Shown piece by piece: positions 4,235-61,952 of a stretch of DNA of 64,000 nucleotides. The first letter of the stretch is position 1; each line of letters begins with the position of its first letter. Both the position numbers and the translations under genes were made by a program. The notes beneath the pieces were generated by a model. That model was given only the letters and a program-made list of their open reading frames with translations, made no database searches and was not told the origin of the DNA. The stretch spans positions 372,001 through 436,000 of the forward strand of contig JASTWF010000070.1 of the NCBI GenBank assembly GCA_030390025.1, written 5' to 3'. This DNA is from Squalus acanthias (lineage: Eukaryota).

Positions 4235-4505
4235 ACCCTCTTCGGAAGAAATCGGCTCGGGATCGGCCACTCTGTCCTGCCTGGTGAGTCGCTTTAAGCC
4301 GGGCTTGGTTGGCCAAGAGACAGAGAGCGGGGTGACGACAGGCGCCGTGTCCCCGGACAGCGATCAAACCTACAGCCTGAGCAGTTACCTGAGAGTCCCC
4401 GCCGCCGCCTGGAACAAGGGCTCCAGCTATTCCTGCAGCGTCAGCCACGGCTCCCTGAGCTCGCGTCTTCTCAAGACCATCAGCGCCTCCTCGTGTTCAG
4501 ACTGA
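4235..4505 (+). pseudogene. Ig light chain C-exon relic (5'-truncated, internal 21-nt deletion; no V/J or promoter)
   Basis: PSSEEIGSGSATLSCLVSRFKPGLV-GQET...SCSD*. Lacks RLRWSVD (conserved Trp) and the splice acceptor; fused to an L2 fragment; 3'UTR with AATAAA at 4816-4821 retained. Confidence 0.92.
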
Positions 4506-14107: not shown

Positions 14108-14436
14108 TCAGTCGGAGCACGAGGAGGCGCTGATGGTCTTGAGAAGAGGCGAGCTCAGGGAGCCGTGGCTGACGCTGCAGGAATAGCTGGAGTCCTTGTT
14201 CCAGGCGGCGGCGGGGACTCTCAGGTAACTGCTCAGGCTGTAGGTTTGATCGCTGTCCGGGGACACGGCGCCTGTCGTCACCCCGCTGTCTGTCTCTTGG
14301 CCATCCACGCTCCAGCGGAGCCGCACCAAGCCCGGCTTAAAGCGACTGACCAGGCAGGACAGAGTGGCCGATCCCGAGCCGATTTCTTCCGATGAGGGAG
14401 GGAGAAGAAGAACCGAGGGGCTTCGATCCTCGCTGC
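14108..14436 (-). CDS. IgL: Ig light chain gene 1, constant (C1) exon
   Basis: Acceptor ACAG at 14437; in frame with J: SSEDRSPSVLLLPPSSEEIGSGSATLSCLVSRFKPGLVRLRWSVDG...YSCSVSHGSLSSPLLKTISASSCSD*. C-terminal interchain Cys; AATAAA at 13792-13797 (-). Confidence 0.95.
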
Positions 14437-17508: not shown

Positions 17509-17862
17509 TCTTTATACTCAGGGCGGTCCCCGGTCCGAAGATGAATCCCGAGTCCCAGACAGCACAGTAATAGACGGCGGAGTCACCGGGCACCAGGGTT
17601 CCGATGGTCAGAATGTAACTGTTACCGGAGGCGTCTCTGGAAGGTTGAAAACTGTCTGTGAAGCCGGTGCCTCGGTTGATGCTGCCCCCGGTACCGTGAT
17701 GGAGCACCCACACCGGAGCTTCCCCGGGTCGCTGTCGGTACCACCACACATCCTTGCTGCCCACAGCCCCGTTCTCCATCGCACACTGTAACCGGGCGGT
17801 CTGACCCGCGGAGACAGGATCGAATATTGGGGACTGATTGAGGACGGGAGCCGCCAGGACAC
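17509..17862 (-). CDS. IgL: Ig light chain gene 1, germline-joined VJ exon
   Basis: AG acceptor and GTAAGT donor; 354 bp open frame: VLAAPVLNQSPIFDPVSAGQTARLQCAMENGAVGSKDVWWYRQRPGEAPVWVL...DSAVYYCAVWDSGFIFGPGTALSIK. V runs straight into an FGxG J motif with no RSS. Resembles my recollection of shark NS5/type I V regions. Confidence 0.95.
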
Positions 17863-18014: not shown

Positions 18015-18063
18015 CTGTTAAATGGATCAGTAGAGCCCACAGGAGATGCATCGCTGGAGCCAT
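18015..18063 (-). CDS. IgL: Ig light chain gene 1 (type I/NS5-like, sigma-cart), leader exon
   Basis: ATG at 18063; MAPAMHLLWALLIHLT-G; 49 bp, phase-1 donor GTGAGA; lies just downstream of an octamer/TATA promoter. Confidence 0.92.
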
Positions 18064-18180: not shown

Positions 18181-18203
18181 TATTTAATACCCGGTATGCA
18201 AAT
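18181..18203 (-). promoter_or_regulatory. IgL gene 1 promoter: octamer ATTTGCAT plus TATA-like box
   Basis: ATGCAAAT on + at 18196-18203 (ATTTGCAT on the coding strand, the light-chain orientation); TATTAAATA just downstream; ~130 bp above the ATG. Confidence 0.85.
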
Positions 18204-31218: not shown

Positions 31219-31550
31219 TTGCAGAGTCCCAGCCCTTTCTGGCTCGGAGCCCCTTCACAGTTACAGCCAGAGTCGGCCAGTCGGTTGAATTGGAATGTCA
31301 CCAGAATTATGAAGTGGAATTTGTGAATAGCTATTACTGGTACAAGCAGCGTGTGGGTGAAGCCCCGAGACTAATCGATATCCCATCCTGTAATCGGACT
31401 GATTGCAAGTTTACTTCTAAAAGAGGACACACCGAAAAAATACTGATCCTGAAATCCGCAATTTGCAGGTGGCTGACACCGGCTCCTATTACTGTGCTGA
31501 TAGGGATAGCAATGCACCGCTCGGGAATGGATCCACACTGCTGGTTGGAG
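31219..31550 (+). pseudogene. Gene A, VJ-type V-set exon with 1-nt frameshift
   Basis: AESQPFLARSPFTVTARVGQSVELECHQNYEVEFVNSYYWYKQRVGEAPRLIDIPSCNRTDCKFTSKRGHTEKILIL / (shift ~31450) EIRNLQVADTGSYYCADRDSNAPLGNGSTLLVG. 332 bp, one short of frame; GTAAG donor. Confidence 0.88.
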
Positions 31551-31640
31551 GTAAGAGCGAAACCAAATTGAATTCAGATCATGCACAGCAATATGATTCG
31601 GTGTAAAGTAAGAGTTAACTTTGTCCCAATCCCTGTCCAG

Positions 31641-31955
31641 ACAGTTCCACACCGGCTGTGCTGGTGTTTGCTCCGCCGGGGGAGCCGCATTTAAGGGACA
31701 CCGTCCCCTTGGTGTGTTTGGTCACTGGCGTCTCCTCGAACCAGATTGCTATTTACTGGAACGTTACCGGACAGTTGACCGAGGGACGGAGCGATTCCGG
31801 TACACTGGACCCGGACGGGACCTACAGCATCAGAAGCCATGTGATGGTCCCGAGGGAAGCCTGGAGAAGCGGCGGGGTCTGCACCTGTATTGTTGAGCTG
31901 GGTTCCAAGGACAAATCTTGGGCCAAGAGCGTGTCGCGCCCCAATACAGTGGCAG
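31641..31955 (+). pseudogene. Gene A, C1-set exon
   Basis: 315 bp open, CAG/GTGAGT sites: DSSTPAVLVFAPPGEPHLRDTVPLVCLVTGVSSNQIAIYWNVTG...DGTYSIRSHVMVPREAWRSGGVCTCIVELGSKDKSWAKSVSRPNTVA. C1 pattern (LxCLV, W, DGTYS). Confidence 0.9.
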
Positions 31956-47459: not shown

Positions 47460-47762
47460 CTCTCTGAGATGAGACACTTTAACTGATCAGATCCCCAGTG
47501 GAGTTGATTGGAACGGCGCAAATACAGACAGCGCCGCTGCTCCAAGTTTCCGCCGAGACGCTGACGTGACTCCTGACAGTGTAGGTCCCGTCCGGGTCTA
47601 TTGTCCCGGAATCGCTCGGTTCCTCGGTAACCTTTCCGGCATCATTCCAGCGAATGGGAAGGGAATCGGGAGACAGGCTTTTCACCAAACACATCAATGG
47701 GACCCTTTCCAGCGAGAGAATTTCATCCGGTGCCGGGGCTAAGAGATAGATTTCCGGAGACC
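47460..47762 (-). pseudogene. Gene B, C1-set exon with late nonsense codon
   Basis: 303 bp: GSPEIYLLAPAPDEILSLERVPLMCLVKSLSPDSLPIRWNDAG...DGTYTVRSHVSVSAETWSSGAVCICAVPINSTGDLIS*SVSSQR. TAA at 47479-47481 where gene A has K (KSVS). Confidence 0.9.
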
Positions 47763-48128
47763 CTGGGAGTTTGGAGGTTAAGATACCATTATTACTCTAC
47801 GGAAATTCGTCGTTATTTATGATAAACTGAGTGAAACATAGAAACATAGAAACATAGAATCTAGGAGCAGGATTAGGCCATTCGGCCCGTCGAGCCTGCA
47901 CCACCATTCAATACGATCATGGCTGATCATTCAAATCCAGTACCCTGTCTCTGCTTTAATCCCCACAGTACACATATCCCACCAACCCCCGTAACCCCAT
48001 GTATTTAATTCCCCCTAACATATCCCATCACCCCACATATTTAATCCCCCCCTAACACTAAGGGTCAATTTATCATAGCCAAATCAACCTAACCCGCACA
48101 TTTTTGGACAAACAAACGCAATTCTTAC

Positions 48129-48467
48129 CTGCAATGAACAATTTCGAGCCGTTTCCGAATATCAAGGGCATTCCGCTCGATTTCTTAGCTGCGCAGTAAT
48201 ACACCCCCGCATCATTCCTCTGGACATCTTTCACAATCAGAGAGTAAATACTGGATTCGTTGATAACCTGTCCGGAAAATCTTCCTTCAGGCGGCATGTG
48301 CTTCCACACGGTGTAAACTAGCTGTAGATGCTCTCGGTGCTGCCGCTTATACCAGTGCACAGCTCTAGCTGCTAACCAACCCGAGTGACAATCCACCTTA
48401 AAGATACTTCCAACGGAGACAGCCTGAACCGGCGGATTCTGGCGGAAAACTTCCTGAGAGACAATAA
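48129..48467 (-). pseudogene. Gene B, VJ-type V-set exon (open)
   Basis: 339 bp: VIVSQEVFRQNPPVQAVSVGSIFKVDCHSGWLAARAVHWYKRQ...EGRFSG...YSLIVKDVQRNDAGVYYCAAKKSSGMPLIFGNGSKLFIA. FGxG J motif in the same exon; GTAAG donor. Confidence 0.9.
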
Positions 48468-48649
48468 CTGAGAGAACAACATATTCACAAGAGGGTCTGT
48501 TACACGGCAGAAATAAACACCGCTTCCTAAAAAGAAACGGGTACAGCAGTAAATTGTGAATAGCACCATCCCATCATTAATGATCATGGATACTAATATC
48601 TAAATGAGTCAAATGATGGGGGTTAAAATTTAGCCTGTAACAGGAGAAA

Positions 48650-55678: not shown

Positions 55679-56007
55679 TCAGTCGGAACACGAGGAGGCG
55701 CTGATGGTCTTGACATGAGGCGAGCTCAGAGAGCCGTGGCTGACGCTGCAAGAATAGCTGGAGCCCTTGTTCCAAGCGGCGGCGCGGACTCTCAGGTAAA
55801 TGCTCAGGCTGTAGGTTTCATCGCTGTCCGGGGACACGGCGCCTGTCGTCACCCCGCTGTCTGTCTCTTGGCCATCCACGCTCCAACGGAGCCGCACCAA
55901 GCCCGGCTGAAAGCGACTCACCAGGCAGGACAGAGTGGCCGATCCCGAGCCGATTTCTTCCGAGGATGGAGGGAGGAGAAGAACCGAGGGGCTTCGATCC
56001 TCGCTGC
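55679..56007 (-). CDS. IgL: Ig light chain gene 2, constant (C1) exon
   Basis: 329 bp as in gene 1; open frame SSEDRSPSVLLLPP...KTISASSCSD*; AATAAA at 55369-55374 (-). Confidence 0.95.
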
Positions 56008-61258: not shown

Positions 61259-61612
61259 TCTTTATACTCAGGACGGTCCCCGGTCCGAAGATGAATCCCG
61301 AGTCCCACACAGCACAGTAATAGACGGCGGAGTCACCGGGCACCAGGGTTCCGATGGTCAGAATGTAACTGTTACCGGAGGCGTCTCTGGAAGGTAGAAA
61401 ACGGTCTGTGAAGCCGGTGGCTCGGTATATCGATCCATCGGTGTTATATCTTAGCACCCAGACCGGAGCTTCCCCGGGTCGCTGTCGGAACCAATTCATA
61501 TCCTCGCTGCCCACAGCCCCGTTCTGCATCGCACACTGTAACCGGGCGGTCTGACCCGCGGAGACAGGATCGGATATTGGGAACTGATTGAGGACGGGAG
61601 CCGCCAGAACAC
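61259..61612 (-). CDS. IgL: Ig light chain gene 2, germline-joined VJ exon
   Basis: 354 bp, intact splice sites: VLAAPVLNQFPISDPVSAGQTARLQCAMQNGAVGSEDMNWFRQ...YYCAVWDSGFIFGPGTVLSIK; no RSS. Confidence 0.95.
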
Positions 61613-61763: not shown

Positions 61764-61812
61764 CCGTTAAATGGATCAGCAGAGCCCACAGGAGATGCAT
61801 CGCTGGAGCCAT
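61764..61812 (-). CDS. IgL: Ig light chain gene 2, leader exon
   Basis: Same peptide as gene 1 (MAPAMHLLWALLIHLT-G); 49 bp; GTGAG donor. Confidence 0.92.
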
Positions 61813-61928: not shown

Positions 61929-61952
61929 CTATTTATTACCCGGTATGCAAAT
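61929..61952 (-). promoter_or_regulatory. IgL gene 2 promoter: octamer plus TATA-like box
   Basis: ATGCAAAT at 61945-61952, same spacing to the ATG as in gene 1. Confidence 0.85.

Follow-up and report, generated by a model that had tools for sequence, protein, structure and literature searches.

Genes 1 and 2, two light-chain V genes of Squalus acanthias, differ at 17 of the 30 nucleotides of CDR2. We read this patch as the contrast between two deeply diverged CDR2 versions of about 25 bp, here called types A and B, which were likely spread from cluster to cluster by short germline conversion amid homogenisation, a reading to which we give a probability of roughly 0.7. The patch is real, yet it is no fresh burst of mutation.

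Two joined light-chain clusters and their family

Feature coordinates refer to the window, the whole stretch of 64,000 nt that was analysed, unless a contig is named. Gene 1 (L017) and gene 2 (L001) comprise the following features.

61259..61612, minus strand: V-J exon of gene 2, germline-joined, open frame, AG/GT splice sites, Pfam V-set 1.8e-12
61425..61454, minus strand: CDR2 30-mer of gene 2, LRYNTDGSIY, type B, with the A/B-diagnostic core at 61427-61451
61494..61529, minus strand: CDR1 region of gene 2, MQNGAVGSEDMN
61764..61812, minus strand: leader exon of gene 2
61945..61952, minus strand: octamer motif upstream of gene 2
55679..56007, minus strand: constant exon downstream of gene 2, open to the stop, C1-set 7e-22
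17509..17862, minus strand: V-J exon of gene 1, germline-joined, open frame, Pfam V-set 1.6e-11
17675..17704, minus strand: CDR2 30-mer of gene 1, LHHGTGGSIN, type A
17744..17779, minus strand: CDR1 region of gene 1, MENGAVGSKDVW
18015..18063, minus strand: leader exon of gene 1
18196..18203, minus strand: octamer motif upstream of gene 1
14108..14436, minus strand: constant exon downstream of gene 1, open to the stop, C1-set 1.4e-22

Judged by their sequence, genes 1 and 2 are intact, germline-joined VJ-C clusters of the sigma-2 (type I/NS5) light chain. Each cluster has one V-J and one C exon, the latter lying 3.1 kb (gene 1) or 5.3 kb (gene 2) downstream on the same strand, and in gene 2 the V directly abuts the J with no spacer. 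The elements at 61945..61952 and 18196..18203 we take to be octamers from the familiar form of the motif. The nearest named proteins are type I chains of cartilaginous fish, one of which, P0049, is labelled Igsigma-2 light chain. The V is 70-75% similar to horn shark chains and 86% to P0002, and the C exon 97% to P0002, while a PDB search returned generic antibody domains only. Sigma-2, NS5, type I and sigma-cart are names of one isotype. According to the accessible text of two papers (PMC5192425, PMC5985310), its genes in skate are without exception joined and those in horn shark are split; the second paper gives its fixed CDR1 and CDR2 lengths as 8 and 7. Loop lengths here match 40 of 41 foreign type I-like domains (in a fixed layout, with one insertion-bearing protein dropped).

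Genome searches yielded 51 paralogues for analysis, 47 of them on the window's contig; the family is larger than this sample, with at least five further close copies (L052-L056) and two divergent ones outside the statistics. All 51 are joined in frame, keep the leader intron and have no recombination signals between V and J. The CDR3 frame is 8 residues in every one, and a single copy has a 9-nt insertion elsewhere. That one junction frame recurs in 51 tandem copies, and again in proteins derived from cDNA, argues for joining in the germline rather than in lymphocyte DNA. Stops or deletions disrupt thirteen of the 51, namely 6 of the 19 type-A and 7 of the 32 type-B genes, and one more carries a 1-nt insertion. 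Six pairs are 0-0.4% apart (L004/L005, L018/L023, L024/L025, L036/L037, L040/L041 and L020/L021), two of them divided between contigs C24 and C3553. As such pairs may be uncollapsed haplotypes or very recent duplications, key tests were run on lineage representatives.

Leader-V and J-C splice junctions of the family were seen in contigs from three runs, one of which contains a type-A CDR2. None of the contigs examined spans the exact CDR2 of gene 1 or gene 2, a result that speaks neither for nor against expression of these two genes. The V domain of L007 is identical to a cDNA-derived protein labelled Squalus acanthias. All 10 cDNA-derived proteins of the nearest cluster (P0002, P0026-P0034) are type B, and 8 of them are nearest to L007, which in this small and possibly primer-biased set hints at skewed use of the family. 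Between the light-chain clusters of the window two further V-J-like plus C1 genes face each other, at 31233-31936 (plus strand) and 47512-48474 (minus strand); they are 25-41% similar to the light chain, and the V of the former is frameshifted. A partial light-chain C exon at 4236-4502 (plus strand), inverted relative to genes 1 and 2, lacks its start and has an internal deletion of seven codons.

The patch between genes 1 and 2

The sequence-only reading had pointed to a burst of contiguous substitutions in CDR2, and its description of the two genes was borne out: the 30-mers it quoted, on the minus strand at 17675-17704 and at 61425-61454, are correct and have 17 mismatches in their 30 positions; 16 of the 120 V-J residues differ, 11 of them in or beside CDR1 and CDR2; the protein is identical from PSRD to FGPGT; and the codons TGG and AAT in CDR1, and AGC and TCG in CDR2, are as it gave them. 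Genes 1 and 2 share a duplicated block of about 2.9 kb, in which 257 of 2,879 aligned columns differ (8.9%). CDR2 is the densest 30-nt window of the block, the runner-up having 10 differences; in 2,000 shuffles of the block's differences the mean maximum was 8.3 and the highest 12, against the 17 observed. The V exon otherwise differs at 2/72 positions in FR1, 6/36 in CDR1 (all replacement), 2/39 in FR2, 3/111 in FR3, 1/24 in CDR3 and 1/30 in FR4, with 20/349 in leader plus intron and 34/299 downstream.

The pair is not exceptional in its family, as 17 or more of the 30 CDR2 nucleotides differ in 318 of the 1,275 pairs of paralogues. Private bases are few: 2 of the 17 in gene 1, and 2 of 17 in the three-copy lineage of gene 2. 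The 30-mer of gene 2 is found letter for letter in two other clusters and is 4 nt from L004/L005; that of gene 1, unique at up to three mismatches, is 5 nt from L013 and L033. The two private bases of gene 2 complete a 4-bp inverted repeat, CGAT-GG-ATCG, at 61431-61440 and could stem from one template-switch event; the repeat is too short for a test.

The two serine codons had been taken for a synonymous switch. They do differ, but the switch is not a direct one, since ACC prevails at this codon in type A (ACC 8, AGC 2, ACT 2 among lineage representatives) and GAT or GCT in type B (GAT 12, GCT 3, TCG 1 and three others). Nor do the codons point to a single event leading from one serine to the other: AGC is one step from the common ACC of type A, and TCG two private steps from GCT. 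AGC is also found at this codon among more distant V genes.

Two CDR2 types of different history from their frameworks

The CDR2 30-mers fall into type A, with 19 genes including gene 1, and type B, with 32 including gene 2, the type being assigned by one CDR2 codon. Mean CDR2 distance is 0.26-0.27 within types and 0.56 between them, or 16.6 of 30 nt on average, a contrast that is partly there by construction, as the types are defined on CDR2 itself. In FR1, FR3, FR4 and the leader intron, A-B distance is no greater than within types (0.045-0.07). Eight sites differ in frequency by more than 0.7 between A and B, all of them at V-exon positions 170-193. Where CDR2 codons of the two types specify the same amino acid they are silently different in 565 of 798 comparisons (0.71), as against 0.052-0.084 for silent difference between types in FR1-FR4 and 0.12-0.16 for CDR2 within types (31 lineage representatives throughout); this signal of age draws on about five silent positions, and CDR silent sites may be under selection for mutability. 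The sequence-only reading had named two observations that would speak against it. One, old CDR2 divergence amid recently homogenised sequence, is what we found, frameworks and introns being homogenised. The other, stepwise intermediates, occurs within types, where genes 1 and 2 each have relatives 4-6 nt away, and not between them, where the smallest gap is 11 nt.

Type B is acidic and AT-rich, with a mean loop charge of -2.1 (type A, -0.3) and a GC3 of 0.21 as compared with 0.61 in type A and in FR3 (binomial P 0.012 for two or fewer of 10). Codons of the type-A-like form GGC-A(C/G)C are present in 12 of 15 more distant V genes, which suggests that type A is ancestral and that type B is derived and old; the two most A-like of the distant genes are GC-rich throughout (GC3 0.82-0.85), which counts against this view. 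A lone divergent joined V-J gene, L058 (G000:C24:46646994-46647323; 57% identity), has a GC3 of 0.82 and a type-A-like CDR2. A separate joined V-J array (L060-L066, L070 and L071, on G000 contigs C262, C2076 and C3676) is about 50% identical to sigma-2 V and has a very short CDR3 and N-glycosylation-like motifs. In L008 and L010 the type-B CDR2 looks like a degenerate run of GAT/xAT triplets, to which slippage may have contributed.

Within types, replacement divergence is 0.25-0.26 in CDR2 and 0.04-0.05 in FR1 and FR3. CDR2 pN does not exceed pS in either type (0.25 vs 0.31 and 0.26 vs 0.30), so that selection for varied loops is something we only infer.

Movement of CDR2 types among clusters

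On a tree of the 51 genes built from flanks and frameworks, without the CDRs and FR2, the type changes seven times, and three of these changes are forced by the starred branches. A single type-A clade was recovered in 0 of 200 bootstrap trees and was rejected (p-AU 1.7e-9). The same pattern was obtained from the upstream and downstream flanks analysed singly, with nine and ten changes, respectively. Shuffling the types on the flank tree gave 15.5 changes against the seven observed; type is therefore still clustered on the tree, and it is mostly by duplication that it is inherited.

L012, L015 and L029 are flank sisters (100/100), 2.7-3.1% apart on both sides, and include opposite types: L029 differs from L012 and L015 at 20 and 17 of the 30 CDR2 nucleotides. 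The CDR2 of L015 is identical to that of L006, whose flanks are 8.8% away. Compared with L029 and L006, L015 resembles its sister up to position 160, the putative donor over 161-238 and the sister once more at 239, which bounds the tract at 29-78 bp, although the comparison fixes neither the recipient among the sisters nor the direction of any exchange. A short tract whose genealogy differs from that of both flanks, the mark of germline conversion, is thus present in the L015/L029/L006 case and in the rejection of one type-A clade. In a copying model, gene 1 resembled L048 upstream and L013 over 128-330; the likeness of gene 2 to L004 was confined to 162-189. A paralogue resembling the donor is at hand for L015 in the identical CDR2 of L006, and for genes 1 and 2 only as relatives 5 and 4 nt off.

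Mantel tests covered 28 lineages, three having been dropped for flanks that were non-homologous or gappy. CDR2 distance was uncorrelated with that of the upstream and downstream flanks, FR2 and FR3, and weakly correlated with CDR1 (0.16) and CDR3 (0.10); upstream and downstream distances were mutually uncorrelated as well. A longest-run test of the GENECONV kind, which has low power for 30-bp tracts, was significant for 10 of 1,269 pairs, with no fragment over CDR2.

Alternative origins of the patch

Ongoing germline hypermutation of the shark type (AID, tandem substitutions), a kind of process that the sequence-only reading had offered as one of two explanations, is very improbable given that 15 of the 17 bases of each gene are common to other lineages. 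In recent duplicates (16 pairs, not fully independent, with dense tracts masked) the V exon has diverged no faster than its flanks (0.027 vs 0.026-0.031). Tandem bases do make up more of the changes in the V exon of these pairs (27 of 155, 17%) than in four flank zones (7-12%) or by chance (about 5%), with a Fisher P of 0.39 that is rough, coming from halved counts; far-upstream DNA likewise reaches 11%, and the somatic share in shark TCR-alpha is 38% in frameworks and 51% in CDRs by the accessible text of PMC5931798. Private doublets exceed a label shuffle in frameworks (21 vs 5.4) and in the J-C intron (20 vs 6.9), in rows that are partly misaligned. Changes at WRC/GYW show no excess in CDR2 (4 of 7 against 60% available), frameworks or introns, and a lean among private G/C changes in CDR1 (8 of 14, P 0.058, small counts). 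A faint contribution of hypermutation is possible, yet it cannot account for the 17 differences. Point mutation under plain diversifying selection in CDR2, with no cassette exchange and with similar loops arising by convergence, is improbable too, and for the A/B contrast it is largely refuted. It would fit the excess of CDR2 replacement within types over FR1 and FR3, the stepwise neighbours found in each type and the bias of replacement towards CDRs reported from the joined type I genes of skate (PMC2192082, accessible text). Selection on the protein leaves the linked silent differences (0.71) unexplained, however, as well as 17 changes between sisters 2.7% apart, one of them letter-identical to a non-sister, and private CDR2 changes per site (0.60) match those of the flanks (0.49-0.62; 0.49-0.67 for all regions outside CDR2, recurrent changes being undercounted at variable sites).

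A different kind of proposal is that one version, more likely B, arose in a single ancient event and then spread, the event being conversion from a distant or lost donor or an error-prone repair patch. We regard this as possible but unlikely; it concerns origin only and is compatible with exchange of cassettes. The low GC3 of type B (P 0.012), the sharp edges of the A/B difference with its gap of at least 11 nt and the resemblance of the 5' half of CDR2 in the L060 group to one type-B subgroup (12 of 15 nt, picked post hoc) speak for it, but long gradual divergence shielded from homogenisation would look alike, and matches to the type patterns are confined to the family. At up to three mismatches the two 30-mers match only the gene itself, plus two sister copies for gene 2; neither they nor the type consensus patterns have a match beyond the sigma-2 family among the best candidates scored. 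Of 15 distant V genes, taken from about 90 listed, none has fewer than 7 mismatches to type A or fewer than 12 to type B. The earlier suggestion of micro-conversion from a distant V donor is consequently supported as regards micro-conversion, with sibling clusters as the partners, and unsupported as regards the distant donor. That the mosaic clusters are assembly artefacts is exceedingly improbable. The several pairs 0-0.4% apart could be uncollapsed haplotypes that inflate the counts; against an artefact, one read is long enough to contain a tract shorter than 80 bp, L012 and L029 have changes of their own in their mosaic CDR2s (1 and 5 nt from the nearest) and both types are found in contigs from other organisms' runs.

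CDR2 types in other sharks and rays

A manta ray loop equals the L006/L015 loop at 10 of 10 residues, although its framework matches the family at only 55 of 74 residues on average, and whale shark and horn shark loops match at 9 of 10. A profile run on 31 distinct foreign CDR2s from other sharks and rays (protein only, one insertion-bearing protein dropped) scored 10 as type-B-like and 5 as type-A-like. Horn shark and bamboo sharks each have both loop types, while frameworks cluster by species. Against column shuffles the match across species is marginal (mean best 6.52 vs 6.28, P 0.085; three loops at 9-10 of 10, P 0.039). At the DNA level, both types are present in contigs of two other, apparently close organisms, and a type-A subgroup in a third. 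Sharks and rays split roughly 270-300 million years ago, and the CDR2 versions may predate that split; convergence may also explain the sharing of loops across species, known as it is at the protein level.

Discussion

Diversified CDRs in joined or uniform germline V genes have been described before. Skate type I has at least 89 joined clusters that fall into sequence groups, with replacement differences concentrated in the CDRs (Anderson et al. 1995, PMC2192082, accessible text), and the dogfish family shares its isotype (sigma-2/sigma-cart/NS5) and organisation. Unlike what we describe, the skate abstract does not feature a pair of CDR2 cassettes saturated at silent sites, or their exchange from one cluster to another; for the main text, 'gene conversion' is indexed two times and 'CDR2' ten. 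In pig, VH genes with near-identical frameworks 'mix and match' their CDR1 and CDR2 through gene conversion in the genome (Butler and Wertz 2012, PMC3384076, accessible text). These porcine genes resemble the sigma-2 genes in having CDR modules common to germline V genes and uniform frameworks, for which germline conversion is invoked, and differ in being rearranging mammalian heavy-chain segments, for which that text describes neither a deep dimorphism nor sharing across orders. CDR-biased replacement and germline mixing of CDRs are thus known, from skate and from pig VH, respectively. Somatic hypermutation in sharks likewise sends adjacent substitutions through the CDRs, but as far as the accessible text of PMC4279169 and PMC5931798 goes it is somatic and non-templated, in units of 2-4 bases that make up 38-51% of mutated bases, whereas the dogfish CDR2 differences are inherited, shared by paralogues and span 25 bp. 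We found no account of dimorphic, silent-saturated and exchanged CDR2 cassettes in shark light chains, although one may exist in older texts, in supplements or in subscription papers, such as the dogfish repertoire study of 2012 that PMC4279169 cites.

The process we favour, short conversion amid homogenisation, would work as follows. Near-identical FR2 and FR3 on either side of CDR2 would prime conversion, so that tracts of tens of bases move, while longer exchanges would hold frameworks and introns at 5-10% divergence. This homogenising exchange would fix neither version; both would persist, probably through selection for varied loops, as joined genes cannot vary CDR3 by rearrangement and varied binding loops may therefore be favoured. 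Short conversions would re-deal the versions among clusters, a pattern that is seen in the data and for which we propose non-reciprocal transfer. The peptide-binding exons of MHC genes carry trans-species motifs that are shuffled by micro-conversion. There too, short and old hypervariable stretches are moved among loci and outlast their flanks; MHC variants, however, are alleles of antigen-presenting genes, and those described here are paralogous, fixed antibody genes. Tentatively, and at less than even odds, the two types could be seen as a germline stock of CDR2 cassettes that antedates the divergence of sharks from rays, in which an AT-shifted, acidic type B of single origin and an ancestral type A are trans-species variants among paralogues. 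Micro-conversion would re-deal them, and fixed VJ genes would thereby gain a repertoire of CDR1, CDR2 and CDR3 combinations with no need of RAG.

Hypermutation is not the only reading of CDR differences that lie clustered between germline genes, and whole-exon V-gene trees and dN/dS values in such families blend two histories. How large arrays of pre-joined light-chain genes in sharks and skates obtain diversity in the absence of rearrangement has been an open question since the skate work of 1995. The sigma-2 family offers a measurable answer, in which germline reshuffling of old loop modules outpaces their mutation and tract sizes can be bounded. Should the silent sites prove common to rays, the types would represent a very old balanced variant maintained among paralogues, not alleles.
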